Made by a program: the position numbers and the translations under genes
Shown: piece after piece, positions 1,842 to 23,497 of the stretch
Numbering within the stretch: position 1 is the stretch's first letter
How the letters are laid out: each line of letters opens with the position of its first letter
Source of the DNA: Acaryochloris thomasi RCC1774
Lineage (GTDB): Bacteria; Cyanobacteriota; Cyanobacteriia; Thermosynechococcales; Thermosynechococcaceae
Assembly (NCBI RefSeq): GCF_003231495.1
Contig: NZ_PQWO01000032.1
Coordinates: 7,300-39,299 of the forward strand
DNA length: 32,000 nt
Direction: 5' to 3'
The notes under the pieces: generated by a model
Database searches by the model: none
What the model saw: only the letters and a program-made list of their open reading frames with translations
Told to the model about the DNA's origin: nothing

Positions 1842-2151
1842 TTTCTTCGGCATAGCATCAAGGCGATTGTTGGGTCTCGTTGAGCAAATGGCTGATGAGT
1901 CCAGTGAATCTGCTGTGGCTATTCTAAGGTCGCCAGACTTGCGAGATCGCCTTGTTTCTTCTGACGATGGCGTGGTTTTGGAGACCCAGATTAGGCCGGA
2001 TGGCATTCATCGGACTGTACTTGGTTCCGATAAGAATTTTTTCGCGAATATTGCCTCCGGTCCTGGTCGCAACACCTTCGATGGGATCGTGGCTGGTGCA
2101 TTGAGGTTGGTAAGTGAGAGCGATGGAGAAGGAGTGCGACCATGCAGATAG
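1834..2151 (+). CDS. Hypothetical protein (105 aa)
   Basis: ORF track gives 1672..2151. ATG 1834 sits in an overlap with the upstream stop and follows AAGGGGA. Its 3' end overlaps the ATG at 2142. Confidence 0.5.
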   Translation: MSDFFGIASRRLLGLVEQMADESSESAVAILRSPDLRDRLVSSDDGVVLETQIRPDGIHRTVLGSDKNFFANIASGPGRNTFDGIVAGALRLVSESDGEGVRPCR

Positions 2152-3674: not shown

Positions 3675-3727
3675 GAACCATGTATTGAGATATTTGTGTC
3701 AACAACAAGTTTGGAGAATGTGAACGT

Positions 3728-4345
3728 ATGCAATCAACTAATGCCAAAGCCTCTACGCCAGTTGACGAGATCCTTCTGCCAGCTCAGGCTGCGGCGTTCC
3801 TGGGTGTGACGGAGGAGCAGTTGCACAATGCTGTGTGCCAGGGTTATCTACCTGGGGCTTGCATTGATGGTCAGTGGCGGTTTAGCAAGCGCGGGCTGAG
3901 TAAGTTCTGCTGGCAAAGAAACAATCACAACGGTTCCGCGCCCTGGCTTGAGAACTCCTGTGGTCCCTACTGGTTGGGCGATTGGGCTGAACAAAAGGCA
4001 AAAGGTGTGATCGAGGCTTATGAGGCAGGGGAAAGATACTTCCCTGGACTCTCCATAAAAGGTGGACGTTTTGATGGTCAGGATCTTAGTGGTATTGATT
4101 TTTGGGAGTCCGGCTTGAAGGGTGCAAGCTTTTCTGGATGTATTCTCAAGCAGGCCATTTTTGTTGGTGCGGATCTTACCTCAGCCGTATTCAGGAATGC
4201 AGATCTATCCGATGCAAACCTTGAGGGAGCTGTGGTTGAGGATGCTGACTTCAGTGGAGCTATCCTGAATCGGACTAACTTTGCGGTCAGCTTGATGAGT
4301 GGAGCAAAGCTAGATGGAGTCAGTATCAGCATGGTCTCCTTCTGA
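3728..4345 (+). CDS. HTH (excisionase/MerR-like) fused to a pentapeptide-repeat domain
   Basis: The N-terminus LLPAQAAAFLGVTEEQLHNAVCQGYLPGACIDGQWRFSKRGL resembles excisionase-type HTH domains. The C-terminus has GQDLSGIDFWESGLKGASFSG...ADLSDANLEGAVVEDADFSGAIL repeats. Confidence 0.8.
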   Translation: MQSTNAKASTPVDEILLPAQAAAFLGVTEEQLHNAVCQGYLPGACIDGQWRFSKRGLSKFCWQRNNHNGSAPWLENSCGPYWLGDWAEQKAKGVIEAYEAGERYFPGLSIKGGRFDGQDLSGIDFWESGLKGASFSGCILKQAIFVGADLTSAVFRNADLSDANLEGAVVEDADFSGAILNRTNFAVSLMSGAKLDGVSISMVSF

Positions 4346-4417
4346 CGGTTCGACTCTTGTGAGCAACAGTATTCACCCCGGTTCATTTTCGTTCTTTGTG
4401 TCTGGAACTGAGTTTAT

Positions 4418-5089
4418 TTGTGTAATGTAGTTGGAGCATGGCAGCTAGTGGAGTTAATCGACAGAAGCATTGCTGTGTCAGGGTCGAGTGAGATAAACCT
4501 TGAAGATGCTATATCCCTAATTAGTCTGGACAAAGAGCATATCCTCTCTGATGTAGGTAGGGGGAGGATAAAGGCAACTCGTGTGAATGGTGAATGGATG
4601 TTCGATCGTCAGGATTTATGTGTCTATCAGTACTACTACTATCCAGATTGTGATCAGTTAGAGCCATCAACTCTCTCTTTCCCGACGCCTTTGACCCCGG
4701 AGTCTGTATGGCGTGAGTACCAGCGAGGAGCGAGAGATTTCTCTTGCAGAGCAGTGAGCAACAATGCTGATTTTTCGTGTAAGTCATTGCCAGAAATTGA
4801 CTTTAATTATTCAAAGCTTGCGGGTGTTAACTTTGAAGGCTCAGACCTGAGGCAAGCCAACTTTCGCGATGCCAATATGTTTAGGGTCAACATGAGAAAT
4901 ACAAAGCTGGCTGGGGCTAGCTTTGAGGGCGCTGAACTGCGAATCGTAGACTTCTCTGGTGCAGACCTAACCAATGTTAATTTCGGTGGTTCAAAAATCG
5001 GAAAGATTCAGCTCCAAGACGCAATCATTCGGAACACCCAGTTTTTCGAGGGAATTCTGTTGACAACAGTAAAGCCAGATTATCGGTAG
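4418..5089 (+). CDS. Second HTH plus pentapeptide-repeat protein, a paralogue of 3728..4345
   Basis: ISLISLDKEHILSDVGRGRIKATRVNGEWMFDRQDL parallels the HTH segment of the neighbouring protein. The C-terminus has VNFEGSDLRQANFRDANMFRVNMRNTKLAGASFEGAELRIVDFSGADLTNVNF repeats. The start is uncertain (TTG 4418 or GTG 4448). Confidence 0.75.
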   Translation: MCNVVGAWQLVELIDRSIAVSGSSEINLEDAISLISLDKEHILSDVGRGRIKATRVNGEWMFDRQDLCVYQYYYYPDCDQLEPSTLSFPTPLTPESVWREYQRGARDFSCRAVSNNADFSCKSLPEIDFNYSKLAGVNFEGSDLRQANFRDANMFRVNMRNTKLAGASFEGAELRIVDFSGADLTNVNFGGSKIGKIQLQDAIIRNTQFFEGILLTTVKPDYR

Positions 5090-6478: not shown

Positions 6479-9400
6479 TCAATACTCAAACCCTTCCTCT
6501 TGCTCCATTTCATACTCATGAGCCGCAAGCTCCTTCTCCAGCCAGGGACTTTCCTGCGCCCATTCATCCAGTGTCGAATAGCTCAAGTCGCTCAACTGAT
6601 TACCCCGCGCCAGCCAGTCGTCGATCCCCAGCTTGCCCTGGTCATTCCCTGGCATCTCGGCCACCTCCACCTTGGCTCCCTGTTGCTCTAGCAGCCGACC
6701 GAACCGATGCATTGCGATGGCAACATTCCGTAGTGTCTTGGTCTTCTCCGGTGGATCTTTGTCGAAGCACAGCACCACCGTCCGGCTCTGCCAGTTGTAT
6801 TGCTTGAGATGTCCATCGAGATACCGCTGCTCATTGTCATCTTTGCTGTAGCCCCCATTGACGCCATTGAGAGCAATCGCATCAATACCCCTGGTATAGA
6901 TTGCAGCGCCCTTCTTGGCCCCTTCAGTAATCCAGACTTCCTTGGTTTCGTTCTTGATGTCATCGAGATCCTTGGCAAAGGCAAAGTGACTGCGGTGTGA
7001 GGGCAGGTTTTGTGACGCCTTTGGAATAGACTCGTACTTGCGTTCTTTCAGCTCTGGCTTGTAGTTTGCAGGCTTTTCCAGGTTCTGCACCTGACCATTT
7101 TTCAGGTAGATGGTGAAGCGATCCTTGTCCTTCTCCTCAGTGACGGGTGTATTAGGCTTGAGTTGCCCCCACGGTTCGCCATTGAACGGCCTGCCTTCAC
7201 ACCAGAGTCCGCCCGCTTCAAGATGCTCGTATCGAGCTAAGAACTTTTCTACCTGAGCTGTGGTGTATTGGGTGCCGTGGCCTGCGAATTGCCCCATCGC
7301 GTAGTTGAGTAAATGTTCCTTGGCCCCTGGCCCATCGAGAGACCAGAAATACTTCGCAGCCACTTGGGGATGGATTGATGAATCTTTGACCAGCTCCACC
7401 CACCGCTCTTTCTCGATGTAAGTGGGTCTCAGGTATTCCAGCGCTTGCAATCTCTGTGTTGTCCACACTCGTCCTGTCTTTTCTGTTGACTGCTGTGGAG
7501 CTTCGTTAGCTACTTGAGCTTCAGCCTCCAGCCTGTCCTTCTTCAGTACCGGCTTTTCAACTTGTGGCTGAGTCGGTGGCTGGGTGGGTTGCCTATCCTT
7601 CTTCAGTACTGGCTTCTCCACCACAGGTTTTGCCTTCTTCTGAGGTTTGGGTGTGACATCAATGCCCATATTCCGCATCTGCTCCGTTAATCTCTGCAGC
7701 TCCTCTCTCGACACCTCAGGATTGGACCTGAGTGTCTGAACGAGCAGAGCCAATCGCTGTACATCGGCCTGCTGCTCAATCCAGTTTTCAACGTGATCGC
7801 CTAGGCCCACAAAGACCTGCATGTGTTCGGCTATGGCATCCTGTTGCTGGGTCTCGTGAATCGCCTTAGCTAGCTCCTGCACCCCTTCAAGAGAAGGCTG
7901 CTGCCTCGTCATCTGCTCTAGGCTATGGCCCACATGGTTGAGCTTATCGGTGAGGCCCGACTCTAGCAGTGTCCCCACGTCGGCCTGCTGTTGAATTAGC
8001 TCAGCCAACTCAGCCATCTGTGGGTACTGCATCCACTGTTCCAACCTGCCGCTGACTTCAGTGATGACCTCAGCCACCTGCTCCATTGCTTGCTGTTTGG
8101 TGATGACCTCTGCCAACTGTTCGATGCCATGTTGTCCTCTGAGACGATCCATCACGCCCGAGAACTCAGCGGCCACCTCAGCAATGAGCTGTTGCTCCTG
8201 CCAGCCGTGTAATGCCTCCGCTAACTCCTGCACCTGTGGCCTGACGGTTGACGGTCCCGTGAACTCCCGAAGTAGCTCCATCACCTGAGCTTGATCGCCT
8301 GCAGCCATCGCCTCCACCATGCGCTGTTCGTTGGTCCACTGCCCCACAGCGTTAGTGATGTGATCTGCCACCCCTTTTGTGAGGCTCTGGTCAATCTGTA
8401 GCTGCAGAGCATCAAGCGTCTCTGAGATGAGGGGCAACGACTCAGCAAAGGTTTGTTCGATGTCACCTGAATGAATCACTTCAGCTAGTTCTTCTATACC
8501 CTCGAAAGTGATTCCTGATGGTCTTTGGTTCTCAACGACGCTAGCTAGCTCCTGCAGCTTTTCACCTAAGCCAGATTCAGCGATTACCTGCAGGTCCGCA
8601 TTCGTCTGAATCGCATCGGCGAGTTCAACGAGATTGTGATTCTGGCTTAGGTGCTGCAAGCGTTCTCCAAGTGCGGCACCCACCTCCAGCATGACCGCTT
8701 CAGCTTGGTTGTGTGAGATCGCATCTGCGAGTGAATCAATGGAGCTTGAGAGATCAGGTTGATGAACCTTCTCTTGAGCCAGCTCCAGTGATTTGTCGAT
8801 GGTCAGTCCTAACTTTTCTAGCGCCTGATTGATGCCCGGTAGCGTTTCCGCCAATACTTCCTGAGCATTAAAAGTATTGATGTCGTTGGCTAGTTCGTTG
8901 ATGGAGCGTTTGAGGGCTGCATCTGATTGGTCTCTAGAGACGTTGGCAGGCTCGCCGTATCCGGTAGATCGATCGTCAGTGATGAGCGACCCGTTAGCCC
9001 GTGCCGCTTCAACTCTCCCACTAAGTCTTGCAACTGCTCCATCCAGTCTTGATTGGTGCCCAGCATCGAGACGTTGTTGAGCTGCGCGTCGTTGATTTGG
9101 GTCATCAAAGCGTCGAGCCTTCCGTAAAGCTGCTTGATGCTCTGGGCTAGGTCGTCGTTCTTCTTGCCCTTCAGCGCTTCGCTCAGTGCTTCGGTGAACT
9201 CCATCAGATGCCCGTTGAGAACCACTGGCATTGTATTCATCGACTGATTGACCAATTGATGCACCTTCTTGTGTCTGGCTTCGTTGTTCTCGTTGAGCTG
9301 TTGATTGTGCTGGATCAAGAGCCGATTCTGTTGCTCGACTGACATCAACCGTCCGTTGGCTGTCTCCAACTGCCTGCTTATGGTTTGGTTCTGCTTCTCG

Positions 9401-10462
9401 ACTGCCGTCAGCCTCTCGCTCATGACTTGGTTCTGCTGCTTGATCTCGTTCACGAGTGTTAGTAGTTCTTCCATGATTGATGTCCTCTGGTTTTGTGGGT
9501 TGAACGGTTGAAGCCTTTTCTGCCGTAGTCCTTTCTATGCCCTGCTGTTCTTCACGCACAGGGATAGAGACCACGTTTTCTTGAACGATATGCAGCCTGG
9601 GATTTTGCAGGTCCACCCCCTGCGCTCTGTCGTGCCACTGCTGCTTTAATTTCTGGGGTTCTTCGAGTTCCTTGACGGGGCGGTTTTGCAGGCTAATGTG
9701 CTTTAGCTCTCGCCAGCCTGTAACGCCCTTGGCTTGGGCAATCGCTTCTATTTCCACGGTGCGCTGGGAGAAGGCCCGTAGCTGTTCTTTTGTATACCCA
9801 GTGATATCGAAGGTATCGTTTGGCTTCCAGACAATCCCGTAGCCAATCTGTTGTAGGTTGGCGGCGAGTTCATGTTGATACCGAACGCCTAAGTCACGTC
9901 GGCTATCTCGAAAGAAGCTTTCGTTCCGCAGTGCTCTCCATTTGCCATCACTGCAGTAGCTGGTGTTCATGATGATGGCGTGGGTATGGAGCTGCGGATC
10001 CATCTTGCGACTGGTGGCATGGGTGAAGGTGGCAATCGCTAACTTGCCGGTGATCTCCTTCTGGCGTTTACCTCCGGTGCGGATCTCAACGAGGGAGTGA
10101 TTCAGTTCAATTTCCTTGAGGACCGCATCAACGGCTTCTCGATGAGCCTTAATCACTCGCGTGTCATTCCAGACCAGTGCTTGCAGGCTAACTGACTTGG
10201 GCGCAGAGAACGTGAGGTCGTAACCTCCCCTGGTTTTATTCCCGGCATTGCTGACGCCGCGTAGTCTGACGCCGTTGGGCGCTCTGCCGTGGATGAACCT
10301 TCGGAAGTCTTCTGCCTCCACTGCACCCTCAAGGCAAACCTGCGCGGCAAGGTTTCCATACCAGCGTGACCCACAGGCATTTTCTTCCTGCGCGTAGTAG
10401 GAATCTTCTTGTTCGTAGTAGGAGGCTGCTGCCTCTGGTCTGACGTTGTGGGCGGTGAGCAT
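6479..10462 (-). CDS. MOBF (TrwC-type) relaxase fused to a helical repeat array and a Toprim-like C-terminal domain
   Basis: The N-terminus parallels R388 TrwC as I recall it: MLTAHNV, paired Tyr AASYYEQEDSYY, LTFSAPKSVS and the His triad FTHATSRKMDPQLHTHAIIMN (nt 9980-10021). The C-terminus EVWITEGAKKGAAIYTRGIDAIALNGVNGGY...VVLCFDKD...GIDDW resembles Toprim (DUF3854-type, from memory). No Walker A motif is recognisable. Confidence 0.9.
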   Translation of the reverse strand: MLTAHNVRPEAAASYYEQEDSYYAQEENACGSRWYGNLAAQVCLEGAVEAEDFRRFIHGRAPNGVRLRGVSNAGNKTRGGYDLTFSAPKSVSLQALVWNDTRVIKAHREAVDAVLKEIELNHSLVEIRTGGKRQKEITGKLAIATFTHATSRKMDPQLHTHAIIMNTSYCSDGKWRALRNESFFRDSRRDLGVRYQHELAANLQQIGYGIVWKPNDTFDITGYTKEQLRAFSQRTVEIEAIAQAKGVTGWRELKHISLQNRPVKELEEPQKLKQQWHDRAQGVDLQNPRLHIVQENVVSIPVREEQQGIERTTAEKASTVQPTKPEDINHGRTTNTRERDQAAEPSHEREADGSREAEPNHKQAVGDSQRTVDVSRATESALDPAQSTAQREQRSQTQEGASIGQSVDEYNASGSQRASDGVHRSTERSAEGQEERRPSPEHQAALRKARRFDDPNQRRAAQQRLDAGHQSRLDGAVARLSGRVEAARANGSLITDDRSTGYGEPANVSRDQSDAALKRSINELANDINTFNAQEVLAETLPGINQALEKLGLTIDKSLELAQEKVHQPDLSSSIDSLADAISHNQAEAVMLEVGAALGERLQHLSQNHNLVELADAIQTNADLQVIAESGLGEKLQELASVVENQRPSGITFEGIEELAEVIHSGDIEQTFAESLPLISETLDALQLQIDQSLTKGVADHITNAVGQWTNEQRMVEAMAAGDQAQVMELLREFTGPSTVRPQVQELAEALHGWQEQQLIAEVAAEFSGVMDRLRGQHGIEQLAEVITKQQAMEQVAEVITEVSGRLEQWMQYPQMAELAELIQQQADVGTLLESGLTDKLNHVGHSLEQMTRQQPSLEGVQELAKAIHETQQQDAIAEHMQVFVGLGDHVENWIEQQADVQRLALLVQTLRSNPEVSREELQRLTEQMRNMGIDVTPKPQKKAKPVVEKPVLKKDRQPTQPPTQPQVEKPVLKKDRLEAEAQVANEAPQQSTEKTGRVWTTQRLQALEYLRPTYIEKERWVELVKDSSIHPQVAAKYFWSLDGPGAKEHLLNYAMGQFAGHGTQYTTAQVEKFLARYEHLEAGGLWCEGRPFNGEPWGQLKPNTPVTEEKDKDRFTIYLKNGQVQNLEKPANYKPELKERKYESIPKASQNLPSHRSHFAFAKDLDDIKNETKEVWITEGAKKGAAIYTRGIDAIALNGVNGGYSKDDNEQRYLDGHLKQYNWQSRTVVLCFDKDPPEKTKTLRNVAIAMHRFGRLLEQQGAKVEVAEMPGNDQGKLGIDDWLARGNQLSDLSYSTLDEWAQESPWLEKELAAHEYEMEQEEGFEY
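8890..9474 (-). CDS. Embedded +1-frame ORF (194 aa, coiled-coil-like) inside the relaxase linker
   Basis: ATG 9474 follows GAGGA (9487-9483) with 8-nt spacing. The product MEELLTLVNEIKQQNQVMSERLTAVEKQNQ... looks protein-like. Third codon positions are G/C-rich in this frame and A/T-skewed in the relaxase frame. Confidence 0.4.
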   Translation of the reverse strand: MEELLTLVNEIKQQNQVMSERLTAVEKQNQTISRQLETANGRLMSVEQQNRLLIQHNQQLNENNEARHKKVHQLVNQSMNTMPVVLNGHLMEFTEALSEALKGKKNDDLAQSIKQLYGRLDALMTQINDAQLNNVSMLGTNQDWMEQLQDLVGELKRHGLTGRSSLTIDLPDTASLPTSLETNQMQPSNAPSTN

Positions 10463-10517: not shown

Positions 10518-10601
10518 GCCCCAGTTTTTTCTAACGTGCTCTGGGGCGTAATCCTTATGCAGTCTTTGTCTTACCGCCTTCCTTTCTTTTTCCGTGTTTT
10601 G

Positions 10602-10624
10602 GGCGCGGGAGCGCCGTACTGTCT
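10602..10624 (+). other. Candidate oriT nic region: hairpin GGCGC-GGGA-GCGCC followed by GTACTGTCT
   Basis: A 5-bp stem with a 4-nt loop (10602-10615) is followed directly by GTACTGTCT (10616-10624). I recall the R388 nic region as GCACC-GAAA-GGTGC-GTATTGTCT/AT. It lies next to the start of a TrwC-type relaxase gene. Confidence 0.55.
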
Positions 10625-10644
10625 GAATCCTCCGGGAAATTAAG

Positions 10645-10654
10645 TTACGCGTAA
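10645..10654. repeat. Perfect 10-bp palindrome TTACGCGTAA next to the candidate nic site
   Basis: Read directly from the sequence. It could be an accessory-protein binding site. Confidence 0.4.
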
Positions 10655-10799
10655 GTACTTCTTCCGCTCCAGGCTGCCTCCCGAATAAGCGAGAGCATTA
10701 CTCTTAGGGCTAGGGTTCCGGCCAGAGTTGACGAAAGGATACGGCTGACGAACTGTAGCCTGATCGCATAGGCCCCAGAACGTCCATGAGTTCAGCTTG

Positions 10800-11225
10800 G
10801 CGAAAGTCTTGGGTTGAGAGATGTGGCAAGGGAGCGGTAAGTCTGGGGCTGACGAATGGTGCTAACTCCCAGTAGCTCTCCTGTTGTCCTGTTCGCAAGT
10901 CTCAAGGTTAGGGCAAGGGGGCAAGACGGTTTGCGGATGTAGCCACCTCTAGAAAAGCTCTATCTCTCCGGTATGAAGTATCTGAGCGTAAGTCCTGGGG
11001 TGAGAGTTGTAGTGCTAGGGCGGGTTGGATTGGGGCGTCTGACTACTGCAGGCTCTCGTGAGTCTTGTGACACTGGCAAGAGAGTCTATCTGAAAGCGCT
11101 GAGGTTAAGGGTGTGCTTTGGAGCCGAATCAAGAGCTGTACAGCAGCTCCGTAGCCGCGATCTCCCTGTTTTGAACGGTCTGATTGTAGGTCTTGGGATT
11201 GGGGCTGTGGTAAGTGGTCTGTATC
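10800..11225. repeat. Non-coding region with at least six degenerate direct repeats (core AAGTCYTGGGG..TGAGAG..TGT)
   Basis: Units start near 10803, 10837, 10897, 10988, 11060 and 11187. CTGACGAA also recurs at about 10745 and 10849. ORFs here lack RBS and protein-like composition. Confidence 0.5.
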
Positions 11226-11418
11226 GAAAGACCTAAACAATTGCAATTTCACCCCGTAACGCCGACTTCTTCTCCTGAAACTTCTCTTTCGTGAGTCTTG
11301 GAGGTGCTGTTGCGATAAAGGACTCGTAACGATAGTGATGAAGTAATGTAAACAGCTTTGTAACCCATGAGGCGTAGTAGATAGGAAGCCTTTCAATGGC
11401 ACCAGATTTCACCTTAAT

Positions 11419-11452
11419 AACAGCTATTTTTGCGACTTGCAATAGATATATA
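11419..11452 (+). promoter_or_regulatory. Copy 3 of the bipartite motif
   Basis: AACAGCTATTTTTGCGACTTGCAATAGATATATA. TTGCAA is at 11437-11442, 33 nt before ATG 11476, which has an AGGAG RBS. Confidence 0.6.
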
Positions 11453-11475
11453 ACCGCGTAAATAGGAGTAGCTCG

Positions 11476-11742
11476 ATGACAGAGTTAAGACCTCACACAA
11501 CCCTCTTATTGTTAGAGCTTATATGGGAAGGAACCTACATACGACCATCCGCTCAACGTGATTGGGTAGAGCAGAACTTTGAACGTCTTCAACTGCTGCT
11601 TGAGAAGCAGGCTTACACCAAGGTCTGTGAACAATTTGCTGATGAGATTCAAATCAGTCCCGCAACGCTGTCCAAGCATTACAAAGCAACGAAGAAAAAT
11701 AAACGCTGGCAGCGAGGAAAACCTCGTCGCCAGGATAGATAG
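11476..11742 (+). CDS. Small basic protein with an HTH-like segment (88 aa), paralogue of 11814..12233
   Basis: It shares WVE(Q/K)xF..LQ...EKQ.....EI..SP.TL.KHY.A.KK with the next gene. AGGAG RBS present. Confidence 0.65.
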   Translation: MTELRPHTTLLLLELIWEGTYIRPSAQRDWVEQNFERLQLLLEKQAYTKVCEQFADEIQISPATLSKHYKATKKNKRWQRGKPRRQDR

Positions 11743-11813
11743 CTCGGCACGCTCAACAGTACTTGTTCGCCTATATCTAGGCAAAGGGTCATATCGTTAT
11801 CTGGAGTAATACC

Positions 11814-12233
11814 GTGACTGATTTCAAGAAAATACAAGACCTCCTAGAAGAACTGCATGACGAAGGGGATCATATCCCTGAGCGTTCATCGATTCATCAT
11901 CAGTGGGTAGAGAAGCACTTCGCTCTCCTTCAAGACATGATTGAGAAGCAGAGACACCCGCTCAAAAAAATAACGGAAAAATTAAAGGCAGAGATCACTC
12001 TAAGCCCTCAAACACTGCAGAAACATTACCAAGCCGTTAAGAAGCTCAAGCTTGCGGAAGCCAGACGTGCAAAGAAAAATCAGACTACTGAAGCTGCCAC
12101 CTCTGCTGCCGTTTGCGATCGCAGAGGTGGCAGCACTAAACAATCTCGGGCAAGGGTAAAACCTCCAGAGGTGGACTTGTCGAAGATCAGTCCACCGCCT
12201 CAATTAGTACATGCAGAAATTGTAGAGGATTAA
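11814..12233 (+). CDS. Paralogous HTH-like protein with a basic C-terminal extension (139 aa)
   Basis: GTG start follows GGAG with 7-nt spacing. It shows paralogy to 11476..11742. Confidence 0.65.
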   Translation: MTDFKKIQDLLEELHDEGDHIPERSSIHHQWVEKHFALLQDMIEKQRHPLKKITEKLKAEITLSPQTLQKHYQAVKKLKLAEARRAKKNQTTEAATSAAVCDRRGGSTKQSRARVKPPEVDLSKISPPPQLVHAEIVED

Positions 12234-12237
12234 TCCA

Positions 12238-12825
12238 ATGGCAAAAAACAAAAAGGTCAATAGTTCAGAGTTAGAGGCTGCACTCAAAGAGCGTTTTGGC
12301 GATCTTAGTGTTGAAGAACTAAGCAGCCAAACAACTGCTTTGTACACATGCTTGGGTCTTGAGCCTCAAGCTACAGAAATGACTACCGATCAGTATCACC
12401 TCGGCGTTCAAATACTGGACGCTTTCGTCAACGGTCACGCTCAAGATTATCAGCAAGCAAAGGAATGGGTTGAATCGCAGGGTAGCGGACAGCCTGAGTC
12501 ACAACCGTCGCAGTCGGAAGAAATATCTCCGGTTCACCCATCAGGGGACTTACCGGCAGCGATCTCGGAGCAAGGGGGCAAGCTGTATAAAAAAGTGCCA
12601 GATACCTTTGCCCGACAGGATGAGCTTTTTGGAACTGCATTAGACCAAGCAGTCTTAGCAGATCTCAATGAACGGATACGTACGGGTGACCTGGAGGCTG
12701 ATATTCAGGAAGCTATGGGAAAGCGCCAAAGAGAAGGTCGAGAAAGAGCACCCACCTTCATCGAGATGCTGGGGCTTCCCGCAGTTCCCTCGGCTCCGAA
12801 ATTGCCCGAATCGTCAGCGGAATAA
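12238..12825 (+). CDS. Hypothetical acidic protein (195 aa)
   Basis: GAGGA lies 8 nt before the ATG. No family recognised. See the finding on a possible frame switch near its 3' end. Confidence 0.6.
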   Translation: MAKNKKVNSSELEAALKERFGDLSVEELSSQTTALYTCLGLEPQATEMTTDQYHLGVQILDAFVNGHAQDYQQAKEWVESQGSGQPESQPSQSEEISPVHPSGDLPAAISEQGGKLYKKVPDTFARQDELFGTALDQAVLADLNERIRTGDLEADIQEAMGKRQREGRERAPTFIEMLGLPAVPSAPKLPESSAE

Positions 12826-12917
12826 TTGACGATCAGATACAGGGGCAGCTTAGAGAAAATTCCCAGATCCAGGCCCAGCGGCAAAAACATATTTCTCAGC
12901 AAAAGAAGCAACTGCGG

Positions 12918-13094
12918 TTGTTTCGGGACTGGATGTACAGATCGCTGCAATTTGTCGTCGTCGTGGGGATCTGCGTCACCTTCGGGATTGTGCTGGGCTT
13001 CAACCTGCCGAAGGATTTTTTGTGTCCTTCGGAAGAAGACGGCTACTGCCTGCAAGTCAATCTATTGGATAAATTTACGAAAGATGAGCAATAA
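12918..13094 (+). CDS. Unlisted small ORF with one transmembrane segment (58 aa from TTG 12918, 53 aa from ATG 12933)
   Basis: My translation reads (M)FRDWMYRSLQFVVVVGICVTFGIVLGFNLPKDFLCPSEEDGYCLQVNLLDKFTKDEQ*. Its stop TAA (13092-13094) overlaps ATG 13084 of the next gene. The frame is open back to 12702. Confidence 0.4.
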   Translation: MFRDWMYRSLQFVVVVGICVTFGIVLGFNLPKDFLCPSEEDGYCLQVNLLDKFTKDEQ

Positions 13095-13554
13095 ACCTGA
13101 CCCTTGGAATCCAAAAGACGATTCCCGAAAGGGAACGCAACTGGACGAAATCTTTTGCTTGTATGTCGAGGCGTATACGGCAGCTTTTAGCGAATCAATC
13201 ATTGCCAAGATTGATGAATCCATCCGCGACGGCGAATTGGATGCAGCAGTGGAGGCCAGGATCAAAGCGGAGCTGGAAAGGCGTTATGAAGCATCAGAGG
13301 CCGAGATCGAAGTACCAGCGTCAGCGCTTGAAGCTGACGACTGGGACGAGGAGCTAGACGAGATCCCTCGACATCCGCTCCAATCTGTCTGGGCCAAAAC
13401 CTTTGTAGTCATGGTCGGTACTGCGCTCGTTTTTTCCTTTTTGATGCTCTGGTACAACTCAGCACGCTCAACCCGAGAGCATACTTGCGATCGCGAATGT
13501 CTTCGAGAGCAGGCGGCGATACGGGAGATATTGAGGGAGCAGAATGGTGACTGA
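13084..13554 (+). CDS. Hypothetical protein with a C-terminal transmembrane helix (156 aa)
   Basis: ORF track gives 12826..13554. The part upstream of ATG 13084 looks like out-of-frame sequence. TM segment: FVVMVGTALVFSFLMLWY. Confidence 0.55.
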   Translation: MSNKPDPWNPKDDSRKGTQLDEIFCLYVEAYTAAFSESIIAKIDESIRDGELDAAVEARIKAELERRYEASEAEIEVPASALEADDWDEELDEIPRHPLQSVWAKTFVVMVGTALVFSFLMLWYNSARSTREHTCDRECLREQAAIREILREQNGD

Positions 13555-13571
13555 AAAGTAGAGCCAAGATA

Positions 13572-13615
13572 AACAGAGCCAGCCCTTCGGTTTATATCGA
13601 AGGGCTGGCTCTGTT
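13572..13615. terminator. Perfect 18-bp stem hairpin between convergent genes, a likely bidirectional terminator
   Basis: AACAGAGCCAGCCCTTCG (13572-13589) pairs perfectly with CGAAGGGCTGGCTCTGTT (13598-13615). The loop is 8 nt. Confidence 0.7.
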
Positions 13616-13633
13616 GGGTTAAGTTGATTTGTG

Positions 13634-14494
13634 CTAGGCCGCTACAGCAACCGGCTGCAGTGCTGCAGCTTCCACTGCTGCGATGATTTCCTTCGCCGCC
13701 TTCTGAATGCGAGAGCCGGATTCCTTGAGCTGTGCGATCGCATCGTCGGTTCCGCTCATCCAGTCGCTAACGTAGGCAAAACTATAGTCACCGGAATCGA
13801 GGTCCAGGGCATTGAGGACCACGAAGGCGACTGATTCAGCCTCTAGCTCTAGAACAGACCGCTCGTTATGCATCCGGTAGTCTTGGGCAGAATGCATCAA
13901 CGCATGACCTAGCTCGTGGGCCATTGTTTTCGCTTGGTGCAACGGCGATAGCAGGGGGTTAATGGTGATTTCAATGCCTCCTGGTGCAAAGTAGCACTGA
14001 CCGTTAGGACCAGTAGAGTTAAACTGAGTCTTGAAGACCTTGCTATGAGCAAAGTCTCGGAGGGCGTTAAACAGTCCCTGATCGTCTCCTTGTATTGGGT
14101 TGCAGATATCGGGTAACTCTTCCCCATCTGTTTGGGAGATATCGAAGACCGTTGCCGTCTTAAATCCTGAGATGATCCGCTTTGAGTCGCCGCTCTCTTG
14201 GTCTTCAATCTTTCGGGTTACTGGAGCAAATATGGTGATGCCCTTCTCTCCCTTGCGGACCTGTCGGCCCATCTTCTGCCAGACGCGATAGCCTGCCACT
14301 CTAGACGCTTCAGGCATTTGCTCACGGATCATGACGATATTTCGGAACGAGTACTGATTAAAGCGGCTCTGGAAGGATAGATACTCCTGCCAGTCGCCGG
14401 ACGTTGCTAGGGCTGCAATACCGGCTTCGAGCTTGGCGAGGGCTTCGGTCTGCTTTTGCTCGGCGGCCGCTTTGTTGGCTTTGAATTTTGTCAT
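13634..14494 (-). CDS. ardC: ArdC-like antirestriction protein (ssDNA-binding N-domain plus HExxH metalloprotease domain)
   Basis: YSFRNIVMI...GYRVWQKMGRQVRKGEKGITIF is the typical ArdC/DUF1738 N-domain signature. MAHELGHALMH is a zincin HExxH motif. A GGAG RBS lies inside the conserved intercistronic module. Confidence 0.8.
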   Translation of the reverse strand: MTKFKANKAAAEQKQTEALAKLEAGIAALATSGDWQEYLSFQSRFNQYSFRNIVMIREQMPEASRVAGYRVWQKMGRQVRKGEKGITIFAPVTRKIEDQESGDSKRIISGFKTATVFDISQTDGEELPDICNPIQGDDQGLFNALRDFAHSKVFKTQFNSTGPNGQCYFAPGGIEITINPLLSPLHQAKTMAHELGHALMHSAQDYRMHNERSVLELEAESVAFVVLNALDLDSGDYSFAYVSDWMSGTDDAIAQLKESGSRIQKAAKEIIAAVEAAALQPVAVAA

Positions 14495-14567
14495 GGTATT
14501 TCTCCTTTTTCCCTGTAGCGGTTGGGTTTACGGAAGTGCGGCGGTGGGGGCGCTTGGCCCCCTTGCG
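14495..14567 (-). repeat. Intercistronic module copy A1
   Basis: Gene-direction order is stop, GGGGGC-loop-GCCCCC hairpin (14546-14562), CGTAAACCCAACCGCTACAGGGAAAAAGGAGAAA, then ATG. Confidence 0.7.
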
Positions 14568-14762
14568 TTAGTCCTGAAGGAATCGAGCGAACTCTAGTGA
14601 CTCGTTCGCATAATCTGGGTCAATCTCTAGGCAGTTCTCGAAGTAAGTCGAGACTGCATCGCCTTGAGAGCTGCCAGTCCCTACTGGGAAGCGCTCGGCG
14701 TCGTCGGCTGTGTCGTAAGCAATCCAGGTTCTAGGAATTGGGACGGTTTCGGTCTGAATCAT
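14568..14762 (-). CDS. Small acidic protein (64 aa), paralogue of 27781..27978
   Basis: It shares PIPxTW.A.D..DD.E.F.V.TG.S...A...YF(E/D)NCLEIDP.Y.N.S.EF.RF with the second copy. Confidence 0.65.
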   Translation of the reverse strand: MIQTETVPIPRTWIAYDTADDAERFPVGTGSSQGDAVSTYFENCLEIDPDYANESLEFARFLQD

Positions 14763-14838
14763 ATGTATTTCTCCTGTAGTCCCTTCGTGGCGTTGGGGGG
14801 CAGTAGTGGGTTGAGGGGGCGCGGTGCCCCCCTAGTCT
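14763..14838 (-). repeat. Intercistronic module copy A2 (degenerate)
   Basis: GGGGGC/GCCCCC hairpin at 14815-14831. CTACAGGAGAAA precedes the ATG. Confidence 0.55.
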
Positions 14839-15099
14839 TTAAGCTTTCAAGTCAGTACCGTAGAGTCTTGTGATCGAGTAGAACTGGCGACTTAGCTCTT
14901 GAAAGCGGTTTGCAAGGTCGTCTTGCTCATCCCGTCCGCCATCAGCGATATCGAGATAGTTGTTCATGGCTGAGGCAAGGTCGCTAAGGTCGGCAACAAA
15001 AGCCTTGGTATCGGCCTCAATCTCCATCGCCTGAAGCATCGCAACAGGATAGGACTGCTCAGGATGAAAGTTGACGATTGGCGTTAGAGTAGTAGTCAT
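14839..15099 (-). CDS. Hypothetical acidic protein (86 aa), first gene of operon A
   Basis: AAGGAA RBS present. It is preceded by a conserved leader and a consensus-like promoter. Confidence 0.6.
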   Translation of the reverse strand: MTTTLTPIVNFHPEQSYPVAMLQAMEIEADTKAFVADLSDLASAMNNYLDIADGGRDEQDDLANRFQELSRQFYSITRLYGTDLKA

Positions 15100-15129
15100 A
15101 AGTTATTCCTTGTTGGGTTTAACTGCATC

Positions 15130-15164
15130 GGCATCGCTTACTTCTTGGTCGGAGGGGCGATGCC
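15130..15164 (-). other. Conserved 5'-leader hairpin of operon A
   Basis: GGCATCGC (15130-15137) pairs with GCGATGCC (15157-15164). The leader is homologous in sequence to 28371-28406 ahead of operon B. Confidence 0.5.
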
Positions 15165-15186
15165 TTTGCTTTGTTTGTATATGAAT

Positions 15187-15238
15187 ATTATAAACTATCA
15201 GTTTATAGTTTGTCAATCATAAGCTTATGGTTTATGAT
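15187..15238. promoter_or_regulatory. Back-to-back divergent promoters with overlapping -35 boxes and palindromic operators
   Basis: Minus strand: TTGACA (15216-15211), 18 nt, TATAAT (15192-15187), with the palindrome TATAAAC-TATCA-GTTTATA (15189-15207) overlapping the -10 and covering most of the spacer. Plus strand: TTGTCA (15210-15215), 17 nt, TATGAT (15233-15238), with the palindrome CATAAGCTTATG (15218-15229) in the spacer. Confidence 0.7.
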
Positions 15239-15275
15239 AAGTTCACAGCTTAGAGTTTATAACTAAGGAGTAGAG

Positions 15276-15530
15276 ATGAAGCTAATTGGGATGAAGGTAA
15301 GAAAAGTAATTGATGTTGAAGTTCCTGGGTTGGGACTCCAAATCAAAGAGGCTAGGGAAAGAGACCCGCGTTCTCTGGCTAGTATCTGTCGAGAGATTGA
15401 TATGACACCTATGAATTGGTACAAGATTGAGGCAGAGGGCACTAAGGCTTTGCCTGAAGAAACGTTGCGAGATATTGAGAAGGTGCTTGGTGTCGATCTT
15501 GGGGTCAGCTTTGAAGTGGCTGCTGCTTAG
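15276..15530 (+). CDS. XRE/Cro-type HTH transcriptional regulator (84 aa)
   Basis: LGLQIKEARERDPRSLASICREIDMTPMNWYKIEAEGTKALPEETLRDIEKVLGVDLG fits the HTH_3 pattern. AAGGAG RBS present. It is divergent from operon A. Confidence 0.8.
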   Translation: MKLIGMKVRKVIDVEVPGLGLQIKEARERDPRSLASICREIDMTPMNWYKIEAEGTKALPEETLRDIEKVLGVDLGVSFEVAAA

Positions 15531-16024: not shown

Positions 16025-16372
16025 GTGAAACTGCCAAAACTGTTGCCATTCGGTGCAACCGTATTCCTGATCACCACTCGCACATCCTGGGCAGACAACA
16101 GCCTGGGTAGTTGCATCGTATCGGTGCTGTGTAGCGGGATCGCTTTCCTATATCTCGTATCAGCCTTTCAGCCCAAAGCTCTCTACTTCAATACCCGGTT
16201 TTTCGCGTTCTATTTCATCTCGCTAGCGTATCTGCTGGTGGAAGTTGCGATCGCACAATTTGATTCAGACCCCTATCAGGTGTTGTTTGCTGCCGCTGTC
16301 ACAGGGGTAGCGATGGTATCAGCGCTATTGGTTGAGCTGTTTTTCTTCATGAGGCAAAAGAAATGGATTTGA
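16025..16372 (+). CDS. Small integral membrane protein (115 aa)
   Basis: There are about four hydrophobic segments. The start is GTG with no clear RBS. Its stop overlaps the AAA+ gene start by 10 nt (ATGGATTTGA). Confidence 0.5.
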   Translation: MKLPKLLPFGATVFLITTRTSWADNSLGSCIVSVLCSGIAFLYLVSAFQPKALYFNTRFFAFYFISLAYLLVEVAIAQFDSDPYQVLFAAAVTGVAMVSALLVELFFFMRQKKWI

Positions 16373-17826
16373 TTAACAGACTGCAGCAGGGCTATAGCGT
16401 ATTGGCCCTAGAATCCCCCTTCAGTGAACGGATGCGAGTGCTGGCGGATTTAGAGCAATGGTCAGAGCAGCCGATCTACTTTTGGAGTCCTGGCTATTCC
16501 AAAGTGCTGCAGTACAAGAATAACCGTCTGGTCAGCATCGGACAGATAGATCGCTCAGGCAGCATCAATAGTCCTATGGATTTACTCAATGAGGCAGGGA
16601 TCTACTTACTCGAAGGGGGGCTAGATAAATTCAACCATTTTGTCTGGGTGGATCTGTACCACCGACTCAGGGAAGGCTATACCGTCATTGCCTTGGATCC
16701 TGCTCCAGAGCTGCACGATGATTTACGCGCCATCATTCCCCTAGTGATTGATGCAGTACCTGAATATCGGACTGTAGAGCTATGGCTGTGCGAATATCTC
16801 AATAGATCGCCGTCGCCGCGACTGGTAAGAGCATGTCTGGGCTTGCATCTTGGCGCACTAGAGCAAATATTGGATCGGGTGGACCACGGTGATGAAGATG
16901 CGATGGCCGAAGGCCGGTCGGAGACCATCGCAAATTACGTCATTGGTCAGAAAACCGCTCAGCTCAGCGCGGTCGGTCTAGAGTCGATGGGTCAGCCCGA
17001 TGTCGAGATTGGTGGCCTCGACCAACTCAAAGAAATGCTGCACAAAACCACCAAGCTGTTCAGCCCAGAGGCAAGAGAAGCGGGCCTCAACTATCCCAAA
17101 GGGCTTATTCTCTGGGGTCTCCCCGGTACAGGTAAATCTTTAACAACCAAGACCGCCGCGCATTTGTTGGGTATGCCGCTGCTGGCAACTGACTGGAGCC
17201 AGATTATAGACGACAACAATCCAGCCAAAGCAGCAGCTAACTTGAGAGCCATCATTCAAATTGCGGAAGTTCTCTCGCCCTGCGTCCTGGCCTGGGATGA
17301 CTTTGAGAAGATGCCCCTTGGCGCACTGCACGGCATTTTGCTCACCTGGATGCAGGAGCGGACTAAGCCTGTGTATATCATCAGCAGCGTCAACCGTCTT
17401 GAGAAGCTGCCGCCCGAGATGATCCGGGCCGGTCGCTTTGACCAGATCGTATTTGTCGATCTGCCGAAAGAAGGAGAGCGGCAGGAGATCATCGCGCTTC
17501 ACCTGGCGCGATACACCGAGAGTGTTGAGTTCTCAAAGCTGGACTGGCACAACCTAATTAGTGCCTTCCGCAACTGCACGGCGGCTGAAATAGCTGGTGC
17601 TGTCAAGCAAGCTGCTGAAGAAGCTTTTTGTCAGGATAGGGCGGGGCAGATCACCGTGCAGGATTTGGTGCATCAGCGCAGCTTGTTTGTGCCCTCGATG
17701 ATTCGAGATGAGGATAGTATGTTAGCCATCCGCAAGCTGGCGCACTTGGCTCGCCCTGCCAGCGGTCCCGACAACTCTCAATGGCGAGTACCGCCGAGCG
17801 AGATGTTTGAGTTTATGGAGGATTAA
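16363..17826 (+). CDS. AAA+ ATPase with an N-terminal domain, Ycf46-like in layout
   Basis: Walker A GLPGTGKS. Walker B region CVLAWDDFEK, with DD where AAA proteins usually have DE. Second region of homology SSVNRLEKLPPEMIRAGRFDQIVFVDLP. The resemblance to cyanobacterial Ycf46 is from memory. Confidence 0.8.
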   Translation: MDLINRLQQGYSVLALESPFSERMRVLADLEQWSEQPIYFWSPGYSKVLQYKNNRLVSIGQIDRSGSINSPMDLLNEAGIYLLEGGLDKFNHFVWVDLYHRLREGYTVIALDPAPELHDDLRAIIPLVIDAVPEYRTVELWLCEYLNRSPSPRLVRACLGLHLGALEQILDRVDHGDEDAMAEGRSETIANYVIGQKTAQLSAVGLESMGQPDVEIGGLDQLKEMLHKTTKLFSPEAREAGLNYPKGLILWGLPGTGKSLTTKTAAHLLGMPLLATDWSQIIDDNNPAKAAANLRAIIQIAEVLSPCVLAWDDFEKMPLGALHGILLTWMQERTKPVYIISSVNRLEKLPPEMIRAGRFDQIVFVDLPKEGERQEIIALHLARYTESVEFSKLDWHNLISAFRNCTAAEIAGAVKQAAEEAFCQDRAGQITVQDLVHQRSLFVPSMIRDEDSMLAIRKLAHLARPASGPDNSQWRVPPSEMFEFMED

Positions 17827-20510: not shown

Positions 20511-21698
20511 TCAGTCAATTTCCCAGCCGTCGTCTTCGACCTCGATCTCCGGGTCGATCTCTGAGTAGCGTTCTGGGAAAAGCTCCTGTTCATAGGACTC
20601 GAACATTCTGATATCTTCAGAGGTCACCGCATATTGAACTCTGTCGTTTGTCTCAGTGAAAATAACGCCCCGTTCATCTGTGGCTGAGATAGTGAGCTTA
20701 TCGTCTGAGAACTCAAGCACATAGTCGTCGTTAACCAGTCGATTGACTCCCTTGTCTTTGGCCTCTTCCCGATAGAAGTTTGCGACATCTGAGAAGGTTT
20801 CAATCGTGCTTTGATCTAGCTCATTGTCCTTATCGAGTGCTGGCTCTGGTGCTGGGTAAACCCACGGCTCGATTTCCCTGCCGCTTACCTGTGAGACCAG
20901 TCGTTCGAGTAATGTTGCCATCTGGAAGGGGCCAACGCCACCCGGTACCGGCGTCAAATGCTGGGGAATGTCGTAGGCAGAGCGACTGACATCACCGCGA
21001 GGTTTTCCTTCGCCGGGAATGAAGCCTGCATCGACGACTAGGCGGTGTTCGGGGATGATGTGTTGCTCATCCAAAAGCTCGGGTGTACCTGTGGCTGAAA
21101 CGACGATATTCGCTTTACGGGTTTGGGTTTCGTCATCTCCGATTTCGATTTCTATGGTGTCGATACCAGCTTCTTTGAGGAGTTTGACGACTCCTTCGCC
21201 CACGTAGCCGCCAGCGCCAACGACAGCTACGGTATCTCCTTCCTGAGCGAAGGATTCGACTAAGCGGTAAATTGTCTCAGAAGTAGCCGAGGTAGGGAAG
21301 TAGGGATTATCGCTGCGCATCCCATCGATGTCTTTCTCGAAAGAGATTTGCGGTAGTAGCTTCTTTAAGTCGTCAGGAATTGGATTCTGGACAATCAAAC
21401 CAACAGAGTTTGCATTGGCCTCTATCAATAGATTCCTAAAGACATCCGGCGTAGTGAGAGAATCAAGTATAGGTTGTTTAACTTGACAGCCAAGTGCTGA
21501 AAATGTTTTCGCTTTATGCTCTGTCGAAAATCGAGCGGCTTCGTATTTTGCAAGTTCAATGGGGTCTTGTTCTGTTTCAGGCGGTAGGAAGCGAATAATT
21601 GTTACCTGTTCCTGGTTGCAGATGTTTTGAAACTCAGCCAGCCTGGATTTAACTTGTTTGAGGATAGAACTACCGTTGACTTTAGATGTCACGGGCAA
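20511..21698 (-). CDS. FolD-like (methylene-THF dehydrogenase/cyclohydrolase fold) protein with a ~110-aa acidic C-terminal extension
   Basis: LTPVPGGVGPFQMATLLERLV matches the FolD signature TPVPGGVGPMT. DIDGM and VAVVGAGGYVGEGV match the DVDG and NAD(P)-binding segments. The start is TTG 21698 or GTG 21692. The canonical PCTP segment reads PTSA here. Confidence 0.7.
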   Translation of the reverse strand: MPVTSKVNGSSILKQVKSRLAEFQNICNQEQVTIIRFLPPETEQDPIELAKYEAARFSTEHKAKTFSALGCQVKQPILDSLTTPDVFRNLLIEANANSVGLIVQNPIPDDLKKLLPQISFEKDIDGMRSDNPYFPTSATSETIYRLVESFAQEGDTVAVVGAGGYVGEGVVKLLKEAGIDTIEIEIGDDETQTRKANIVVSATGTPELLDEQHIIPEHRLVVDAGFIPGEGKPRGDVSRSAYDIPQHLTPVPGGVGPFQMATLLERLVSQVSGREIEPWVYPAPEPALDKDNELDQSTIETFSDVANFYREEAKDKGVNRLVNDDYVLEFSDDKLTISATDERGVIFTETNDRVQYAVTSEDIRMFESYEQELFPERYSEIDPEIEVEDDGWEID

Positions 21699-23332: not shown

Positions 23333-23497
23333 TCAAGCTTCAGGTTTTCCCCTCTCCTGTGCCCTCTCCTGCGCTGCCACAGCCCTCGCCTCAGCATTCC
23401 TCTGGTTCCACTGCTGTCGGGTTTCGTCGGGGTTGGTGGACTTGGGTGGTGCAAATGTTCGGTGGCTGTAGTTGCCTCTGCCTTCTTTAGCTTTCAT
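23333..23497 (-). CDS. Possible small basic protein (54 aa) coupled to the kinase stop
   Basis: ATG 23497 overlaps the kinase stop codon region (ATGAAAGCTAA). No family recognised. Confidence 0.3.
   Translation of the reverse strand: MKAKEGRGNYSHRTFAPPKSTNPDETRQQWNQRNAEARAVAAQERAQERGKPEA

Follow-up and report, generated by a model that had tools for sequence, protein, structure and literature searches.

Which genes would a cyanobacterial plasmid bring into a new host first, and do they include functions that protect the incoming DNA? Leading regions have been studied mostly in enterobacterial and Firmicutes plasmids. We analysed this question in 32,000 nucleotides of Acaryochloris thomasi RCC1774 (contig NZ_PQWO01000032.1, positions 7,300 to 39,299 of the forward strand; hereafter the window), where a minus-strand operon encodes an ArdC-family protein behind two small, very acidic proteins, not far from a predicted nic site. 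Based on gene layout and homology, we conclude that this is probably a leading-region establishment operon, which would be expressed by zygotic induction, with ArdC acting against restriction and the acidic proteins serving as further factors. A preliminary description had placed a nick at about 10624 on the plus strand, with the DNA above it entering first, and the ArdC-like operon (15099-13634) within 5 kb of it. Both statements stood up: a relaxase gene adjoins an R388-like nic motif that is kept in a relative, and the operon lies on the minus strand, 3.0-4.5 kb from the nick. The argument rests on the following features (positions in the window; aa, amino acids; pI, isoelectric point).

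6479-10462, minus: MobF/TrwC-type relaxase, 1327 aa (Pfam TrwC 4.4e-72, DUF3854 1.1e-23)
10602-10615, plus: IR2-like hairpin GGCGC-GGGA-GCGCC, 5-bp stem and 4-nt loop
10616-10625, plus: predicted nic core GTACTGTCT/G, the slash marking the predicted cut between 10624 and 10625
10626-11475: non-coding stretch of 850 nt, predicted to enter first
11476-13554, plus: four genes transcribed away from the origin of transfer (oriT)
13634-14494, minus: ArdC-family protein, 286 aa, with ArdcN and Peptidase_M78 domains
14568-14762, minus: protein of 64 aa, pI 4.05, net charge -10
14839-15099, minus: protein of 86 aa, pI 4.21, net charge -8, first gene of the operon
15100-15186, minus: 5' leader of the ArdC operon with the hairpin GGCATCGC..GCGATGCC
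15187-15216, minus: sigma-70-type promoter TTGACA-18-TATAAT of the ArdC operon
15276-15530, plus: Xre-type helix-turn-helix (HTH) protein, 84 aa (Pfam HTH_31 9.5e-5)

The predicted transfer origin and the ArdC gene

The relaxase reached 258.4 bits against the MobF model of NCBIfam (cut-off 100), and its gene starts 162 bp from the predicted nic. This site was compared with the experimentally used R388 substrate, GCGCACCGAAAGGTGCGTATTGTCT/ATAGCC, whose 5-bp inverted repeat encloses a 4-nt loop and precedes nine single-stranded bases up to the cut (PMC4176350) and which was written for the comparison as GCACC-GAAA-GGTGC-GTATTGTCT/A. The geometry in the window is the same (5-bp stem and 4-nt loop as in IR2 of R388, 9-nt single-stranded tract, purine past the cut), and the two 9-mers differ solely at position 20. 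In mutagenesis of the R388 site, nucleotides 12-25 were critical and position 26 had to be a purine, while within nucleotides 17-21 position 20 alone tolerated any base (PMC4176350). The sequence GTAYTGTCTR occurs once in the window versus 0.17 times expected, and a hairpin abutting GTAnTGTnn was found a single time over both of its strands; the same composite search in R388 returned one site, the true nic, on the strand equivalent to the plus strand of the window.

Upstream of the gene for the closest relaxase relative (P0043, 51% identity), GGCGC-GTAA-GCGCC-GTACTGTGT/A was detected on the strand opposite to the gene, embedded in sequence otherwise dissimilar to the window. The arms of this hairpin, which lies in locus L032, are identical to those in the window, and Crocosphaera plasmid B carries GCCAA-AAC-TTGGC-GTAATGTGC at the equivalent place. 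A strict search returned no R388-type nic motif in the relatives from the genome scan (L001-L009), in the Burkholderiales relatives or in Acaryochloris pMB08. A predicted cut after 10624, with the plus strand transferred, is well supported by this comparison. Since HUH relaxases remain on the 5' end and the strand moves 5' to 3' (PMC4176350, PMC11541004), the plus strand from 10625 upward would be the leading DNA. The relaxase would cut the plus strand behind T10624 and remain attached at 10625, the new 5' end; its own gene, transcribed away from oriT, should enter last.

The ArdC operon comprises three genes with strong GGAG ribosome-binding sites. They are open reading frames (ORFs) 5-7 past the predicted nic, with the transferred strand as template, as in leading-region islands. 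For the 286-aa protein, ArdcN (PF08401) was found at residues 16-117 with an E-value of 2.6e-13 and 50.7 bits (cut-off 22.6), and Peptidase_M78 at 3.9e-10 (Pfam). Residues 19-268 align to the R388 ArdC structures 6i89 and 6sna (E 2.4e-11), the active-site motif HELGH standing opposite HEATH of R388, and ELEAE opposite EELIAE, which contains E229 of the glutamate helix. The motif definition requires HExxH in the active-site helix and, on the helix after it, a Glu that is E229 in R388 ArdC (PMC7213743). With both domains, the HExxH and the glutamate-helix Glu present, the earlier identification as ArdC was confirmed: judged by its architecture, the protein is a bona fide family member with a presumed ArdC activity. 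By homology to R388 ArdC, it would bind the incoming single strand, and its metalloprotease domain would defeat type I restriction.

The orientation of the operon had been described as one reported for anti-defence genes in leading regions. This agrees with a published survey (PMC11541004) and, further, with R388 and with five Acaryochloris plasmids, in which ArdC shares the strand of the relaxase gene and faces oriT from the leading side, at a distance of 11-15 kb from the start of that gene. Including the window, ArdC faces oriT in 7 of 7 elements, the five Acaryochloris plasmids being mutually related and not independent. ArdC orientation towards oriT is a recurring feature of MobF plasmids.

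The small acidic proteins and the repeated spacer

The operon raises the question of what the two genes ahead of ArdC encode. Relatives of these genes, and of the spacers between them, occur in a second operon of the window and in other loci, among them L012, a 1.3-kb metagenomic relative with small genes in the same order ahead of ArdC:

25176-28334, minus: second small-gene operon, 14.6-17.7 kb from the nic, encoding proteins of 92 aa (pI 4.5), 65 aa (27781-27978, pI 4.05; paralogue of the 64-aa protein) and 109 aa (pI 4.6), and containing further ORFs
26933-27310 and 26482-26856, minus: two DUF6876 genes of the second operon
28530-28727, plus: divergent gene for a 65-aa protein, ribbon-helix-helix-like judging by its sequence pattern
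14492-14571, minus: spacer module between the 64-aa gene and ArdC
14760-14841, minus: spacer module between the 86-aa and 64-aa genes
26854-26934, 27304-27376, 27697-27779 and 27976-28059, minus: spacer modules of the second operon
912-995 and 1187-1267 of L012: spacer modules
18055-18129 of L033, 11917-11994 of L010, 5911-5988 of L035, 5934-6016 of L036 and 5921-5994 of L037: spacer modules upstream of ArdC in Acaryochloris loci

Of the 52 ORFs in the window, four have products with a pI of 4.4 or lower, and the 86-aa and 64-aa proteins rank as the most acidic two. Both carry the strong net negative charge of DNA mimics, a feature that is not specific. The two ORFs are real genes: comparison with L012 indicated purifying selection, with ratios of non-synonymous to synonymous substitution (dN/dS) of 0.165 for the 86-aa and 0.152 for the 64-aa protein. 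In a word-indexed search, the former had one relative, 83% identical and in the same gene order, and the latter matched only itself. An exhaustive profile search of 1.8 billion representative proteins detected only two further relatives of the 64-aa protein, whose paralogue in the second operon is 51% identical. Neither protein matched Pfam, PHROG or NCBIfam. AlphaFold predicted three strands followed by helices for the 64-aa protein (predicted local distance difference test, pLDDT, 72.8) and a two-helix hairpin for the 86-aa protein (pLDDT 63.8). With these models of modest confidence (pLDDT 64-73), Foldseek searches of PDB and BFVD gave nothing below an E-value of 0.4, a negative that speaks neither for DNA mimicry nor against it.

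The C-terminal half of the 64- and 65-aa proteins (YFxNCLEIDPxY..) resembles a single tetratricopeptide repeat (TPR), and dozens of long TPR proteins were matched; these were rejected as homologues, the matches being confined to this TPR-like half. The only distant relative of the 64-aa protein is a 74-aa product on a marine metagenome contig (L013, 2199-2423). Its gene belongs to a run of fourteen small same-strand genes beside a gene with a PF22769 (DCD) domain, a context with the appearance of a phage or plasmid variable region.

Among the seven cyanobacterial ArdC loci examined, the gene immediately before ArdC encodes a product of pI 4.05-4.38 in six, the exception being Chroococcidiopsis with a basic zinc-finger protein. 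In the Acaryochloris and Gloeothece loci these acidic proteins have 73-136 aa. According to profile comparisons, they fall into at least four families without detectable relationship to each other or to those of the window. In most cases, the gene of a small regulator akin to 28530-28727 is transcribed divergently from the ArdC operon. That the small acidic proteins are anti-defence candidates, as had been proposed, is strengthened because a variable acidic gene precedes ArdC across plasmids, not by similarity to known inhibitors. We consider them most likely to be further establishment or anti-defence factors, placed at a variable position ahead of ArdC.

Alternatively, they could be partners of ArdC, i.e., inhibitors or chaperones restraining the metalloprotease, or target adaptors, rather than independent factors. 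Their genes are always co-transcribed immediately before ArdC, and the recurrence of a small acidic ORF there in 6 of 7 cyanobacterial loci would fit such a role. However, the occupants of this position come from unrelated families, something one would not expect of a dedicated partner to a conserved enzyme, and the paralogue of the 64-aa protein is encoded in the second operon, without ArdC. Further, R388 ArdC was effective alone when supplied in the recipient (PMC7213743). We judge a role as ArdC partners to be unlikely and retain independent factors as the preferred reading.

Almost all genes of the two operons are separated by a repeated module of about 80 nt with a TAAACCCA..CGCTACAGGG core and a GGAG ribosome-binding site. 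In mRNA sense it consists of the stop codon, a hairpin, ACCGCC..CACT, (C)GTAAACCCA-n-CGCTACAGGG, AAAA-GGAGAAATAC and ATG. The hairpins are perfect, GC-only (GGGGGCGC-N3-4-GCCCCC) and confined to the intergenic spacers of the two minus-strand operons. Spacer alignment yielded six copies in the window and two in L012, from which a covariance model was built and applied to about 140 kb of cyanobacterial plasmid DNA. It matched the spacer directly upstream of the ArdC-like gene in 5 of 5 Acaryochloris loci (E 1.8e-6 to 0.02); the other matches at E ≤0.02 were one more pMB04 spacer and a weaker one in a Gloeothece gene array. Because the GC hairpin is invariant, RNAalifold shows no covariation that would be evidence of an RNA structure. 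Nothing in the window, the module included, matched Rfam, whether gathering or permissive cut-offs were applied. Searching plasmids by blastn with the module returned chance matches only. In viral contigs the core motif was matched 30 times, about as often as expected by chance in a rough estimate that was not computed, and never with the whole module. Possible roles of the module are mRNA processing or stabilisation, an effect on translation, a scaffold on which recombination shuffles genes, or a signal carried by the transferred strand.

Expression of the operon and the alternatives to its role

The ArdC promoter is the sole match of at least 11/12 to TTGACA-18-TATAAT on either strand of the window, with 0.02 full 12/12 matches expected. 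A palindrome with 7-bp arms, AAACTAT-N6-ATAGTTT, fills its spacer, and a second of 12 bp, CATAAGCTTATG (15218-15229), abuts the -35 hexamer; both are presumed to be operators. A back-to-back promoter, TTGTCA-17-TATGAT, serves the divergent HTH gene, whose 84-aa product is presumed to repress the ArdC operon. In R388, PardC is repressed by ArdK and StbA and overshoots post-conjugation (PMC3937220). For the window, the non-coding stretch of 850 nt would enter first, followed by the four plus-strand genes and then by the ArdC operon. As a naive recipient would contain no repressor yet, the ArdC promoter would fire fully once the complementary strand is made, and accumulating repressor would then shut it (zygotic induction or transcriptional overshoot, as for R388 PardC). 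Judging from this anatomy, we favour a burst of expression through a transient lack of repressor, by ordinary double-stranded transcription.

About 47 nt of leader core, including the hairpin GGCATCGC..GCGATGCC, align between the ArdC operon, the second operon and L012 (15123-15169 and 28362-28411 on the minus strand, L012 at about 585-635; consensus GCAAAGnCAyCGCC..CTCC..CCAAGAA..AAGCGATGCCrATGCA), but the promoters, operators and divergent regulators of the two operons differ. The second operon has a palindrome, CACTGTACACAGTG, in its promoter region, and the product of 28530-28727 is its presumed regulator, although it has no Pfam match. An 85% identical copy of this gene lies upstream of the L012 ArdC operon, which is paired with the regulator serving the second operon of the window, and in both L012 and Acaryochloris plasmids, homologues are transcribed divergently from the ArdC operon. 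From the shared leader, the differing regulators and the L012 pairing, promoter and regulator units seem to have been exchanged between operons.

The preliminary description had the mRNA copied from the incoming plus strand. The orientation agrees with this, but a single-strand mechanism, in which the operon would be transcribed straight from the incoming plus strand via a Frpo-type folded promoter, fared worse. With the plus strand as template, the orientation is as required, and both this orientation and Frpo-like promoters occur in many leading regions (PMC11541004). The small palindromes in the promoter region of the ArdC operon do fold (z = -4.2). However, plus-strand folds of single-stranded DNA at this promoter contained only short, operator-type palindromic hairpins and the leader hairpin, with the -35 unpaired, the -10 partly paired and no long duplex holding both hexamers. 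No significant structure was seen ahead of the second operon (z = -1.5). The 886-nt segment that spans the nic and the DNA following it (10590-11475) has no excess of single-strand structure and folds worse than shuffled sequences (z = +2.4). No long imperfect hairpin of the Frpo/ssi type was found in the folds of 15095-15280, 28300-28540 and 10590-11475. Since, in addition, a perfect double-stranded consensus promoter stands beside a divergent regulator, we consider transcription from the single strand distinctly improbable and stay with double-stranded transcription.

The Peptidase_M78 (IrrE-like) match, adjoining an Xre-type HTH gene, and a weak NCBIfam match to a repressor/antitoxin family would also fit an ImmA/IrrE-style protease that cleaves the neighbouring repressor, i.e., a regulatory switch rather than an anti-restriction protein. 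The ArdcN domain and the full-length alignment to R388 ArdC nevertheless define an ArdC architecture, IrrE being merely the closest structural relative of ArdC. Further, the HTH gene is divergent and not co-transcribed, and a conserved pairing of M78 protease and Xre-type repressor, as in ImmA/ImmR, was not found on comparison with L012 and the Acaryochloris loci, which have a different, ribbon-helix-helix-like regulator; the Xre pairing is confined to the window. A regulatory protease is thus very unlikely, and an anti-restriction ArdC remains our reading. Least credible of all is a true nic at another place or on the opposite strand, which would leave the ArdC operon outside the leading region and its orientation without meaning: the motif is not universal in the family, as the strict search missed it in the Burkholderiales relatives and Acaryochloris pMB08, but the composite is unique in the window, about 160 bp from the relaxase start and on the expected strand, fits the experimentally critical positions, is kept in the nearest relative and resembles the hairpin and GTAATGTGC at the equivalent place in Crocosphaera plasmid B, and ArdC is oriented alike in 7 of 7 elements.

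Several observations weigh against a leading-region establishment operon. The leading-region orientation that had been described applies to the ArdC operon, but not to the first 2 kb of the span (11476-13554), where the four genes nearest the nic, two of them encoding acidic proteins, lie on the plus strand. With 15 plus-strand and 18 minus-strand genes called right of the nic, there is no global strand bias. The second operon (28334-25176), said to share the orientation, is indeed on the minus strand, but DUF6876 homologues in two Acaryochloris plasmids are encoded on the strand opposite to ArdC; its orientation therefore carries little weight and was dropped as informative. In locus L032, the 4.4 kb next to oriT contain no ArdC operon, and every gene on the leading side faces away, which indicates that the arrangement is modular and not fixed. 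Neither small acidic protein showed similarity to ArdA, Ocr or another known anti-defence protein in sequence or, with models of modest confidence, in fold. Finally, the HTH match falls below the Pfam gathering score, and the palindromes are operators by presumption. Having weighed these points, we still regard the establishment operon as the probable reading.

The surrounding plasmid and its known counterparts

The window, taken from a contig of 39.3 kb, is best explained as most of a MobF-type mobilisable plasmid of a cyanobacterial kind. Gene by gene, the closest plasmid relatives are cyanobacterial (Acaryochloris, Gloeothece, Chroococcidiopsis, Crocosphaera), and several cyanobacterial plasmids with related genes have been typed as MOBF mobilisable. 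The ORF listing and family scans detected neither type IV secretion genes nor a coupling protein in the 32 kb. Megablast of the window against plasmids gave 36-nt matches only and no close relative, no record is identical to the exact ArdC protein, and the relaxase relatives from genome and metagenome scans reach 34-39% identity only. The remaining features are arranged as follows:

left of the relaxase: pentapeptide-repeat genes
right of the relaxase: intergenic stretch of about 1 kb, four plus-strand genes (11476-13554), then the three-gene minus-strand operon (15099-13634)
11476-11742 and 11814-12233, plus: paralogous small basic proteins (47% over 70 aa)
12238-12825 and 13084-13554 (likely true start), plus: two acidic proteins
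beyond the ArdC operon: the divergent HTH gene, then a block of plus-strand genes including an AAA ATPase, then a long minus-strand stretch
long minus-strand stretch: FolD-like gene, Ser/Thr kinase and the second small-gene operon (28334-25176) with its two DUF6876 genes

The relaxase joins its TrwC domain (N-terminal) to DUF3854 (C-terminal), an architecture that it has in common only with P0043. Family scans detected no helicase domain in it, whereas helicase domains are present in most MobF relatives listed in the search, and past the first 300 residues no relative of solved structure was found. We take DUF3854 to be Toprim-like and to occur also in replication proteins of cyanobacterial plasmids; in that case, the relaxase might carry a priming function into the recipient.

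In the non-coding stretch, the 16-nt direct repeat GTAAGTCTGGGGCTGA occurs in three copies that are 81-100% alike (10802-10817, 10837-10852, 10988-11003). They are possible binding sites of relaxosome or partition-type accessory proteins, e.g., of the small basic paralogues 11476-11742 and 11814-12233. None of the four plus-strand genes had a family match in the Pfam, PHROG and NCBIfam scans. The last of them was delimited mechanically as 12826-13554 with a TTG start, its first 86 residues being rich in Cys, Ser and Arg and non-coding in appearance; the likely true start is an ATG at 13084, giving a protein of 156 aa with pI 4.5 and a C-terminal hydrophobic helix. The motif RIRxG(D/E)L(D/E)A is common to this protein and the preceding acidic protein of 195 aa.

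The AAA ATPase gene (16363-17826, plus), on the leading side, is directed away from oriT. It is kept with 43% identity in L032 (99-1649), beside the 51%-identical relaxase and with no ArdC operon in between; the ArdC operon together with the HTH gene thus has the look of a modular insertion in a conserved backbone. The minus strand between the two operons encodes a FolD-like protein that is very acidic (pI 4.36) and a Ser/Thr kinase (20511-21698 and 23487-24719); in a Gloeothece plasmid, a Ser/Thr kinase with 29% identity (L011, 21443-22669) ends an array of ArdC, SSB and DUF6876 genes. On the lagging side of the relaxase there are three consecutive pentapeptide-repeat genes (2142-5089, plus), one of them with an N-terminal HTH_17. 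Pentapeptide-repeat proteins are DNA mimics in other contexts, yet they are abundant in cyanobacteria.

The layout as such, an R388-type leading region with ArdC, is known; new are only the small proteins and the repeated spacer. The findings extend the R388-type arrangement of nic, stability genes and an ArdC facing oriT to a cyanobacterial-type mobilisable plasmid, from a lineage that has received little attention, and the transfer origin of the window becomes predictable to the nucleotide. Moreover, ArdC, the conserved small regulator and the conserved spacer together offer a search handle for a position occupied by unrelated, very acidic small proteins. Restriction is a main barrier to genetic work in cyanobacteria. 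Should some of these acidic proteins block restriction or other defences, they would represent new inhibitor families and possibly an aid for bringing DNA into cyanobacteria; should they have no such role, the locus would merely be another ArdC-bearing plasmid.

In the R388 record, trwC, trwB and trwA lie on the minus strand and nic on the plus strand, between 16173 and 16174. Beyond it come stbABC, also plus-strand, and further on a group of minus-strand genes to which ssb and ardC belong. The window has in common with this leading region the relaxase family, the nic architecture, the gene topology with ArdC facing back to oriT, an ArdC with both domains and a strong promoter under repressor control. 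Identity is limited to about 40% for the relaxase and about 29% for ArdC. In contrast to R388, the window lacks a type IV secretion system, trwA and trwB are missing between relaxase and oriT, and its relaxase is without helicase domains and ends in DUF3854. The four plus-strand genes hold the place of stbABC but are unrelated to StbA, with no similarity found to the R388 protein. ArdC is the last of three genes, behind two orphan acidic proteins, and the regulator is an Xre-type HTH protein, not ArdK.

Closer in sequence are the plasmids pMB04, pMB06, pMB08 and those of S15 in Acaryochloris, and plasmid Cy782202 of Gloeothece PCC 7822. In these Acaryochloris and Gloeothece loci, ArdC is 46-50% identical to that of the window, and a small, very acidic ORF stands immediately before it in 6 of 6; the acidic proteins are not homologous to those of the window, though, and number one per locus instead of two. 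The placement of ArdC on the leading side, facing oriT, was compared in the five Acaryochloris plasmids, and all of them agree with the window. The Acaryochloris loci further share the hairpin and TAAACCCAnTCGCTACA spacer between acidic gene and ArdC (5 of 5). Four of them were examined for a small divergent regulator of the 28530-28727 kind, and all four have one. The Acaryochloris loci differ in that the spacer module is essentially single-copy, versus six copies in the window, and in that ArdC lies 11-15 kb from the relaxase start instead of 3-4.5 kb from the nic.

The anti-defence islands of leading regions (Samuel et al. 2024, PMC11541004) likewise have a known anti-restriction gene among the first ORFs past oriT, templated by the transferred strand and surrounded by small genes that are uncharacterised. 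The window differs from them in its mixed strand use, in lacking a Frpo/ssi-like single-strand promoter, and in its cyanobacterial host lineage; no SSB, PsiB, ArdA, methyltransferase or anti-CRISPR gene was detected in it. Searching the main text of that survey for cyanobacteria returned no mention of them (PMC11541004).

Tentatively, and with the odds rather against it, the pre-ArdC position in cyanobacterial MobF plasmids may be an exchange hotspot that gathers new families of small acidic anti-defence proteins, flanked by the conserved, divergent regulator and the conserved spacer of about 80 nt. If this were true, the 86-aa protein and the 64/65-aa family would be founders of new anti-restriction or anti-defence families, and the spacer would be a cis element for gene shuffling between leading-region operons or for mRNA processing or stabilisation. 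An analogy is provided by acr-aca operons: there, diverse small, acidic, fast-evolving inhibitor genes gather at a site recognisable by its strong promoter and by a conserved small regulator that binds DNA. A conserved marker gene with a regulator and a variable acidic small gene is the pattern that has been used in anti-CRISPR gene discovery, and its presence here makes an anti-defence role more plausible, if not demonstrated. In the window, the regulator is divergent instead of downstream, ArdC and a nucleotide module together serve as the marker, and the inhibitor role is putative; what the two systems have in common is the conserved marker, the regulator and the variable acidic small gene.

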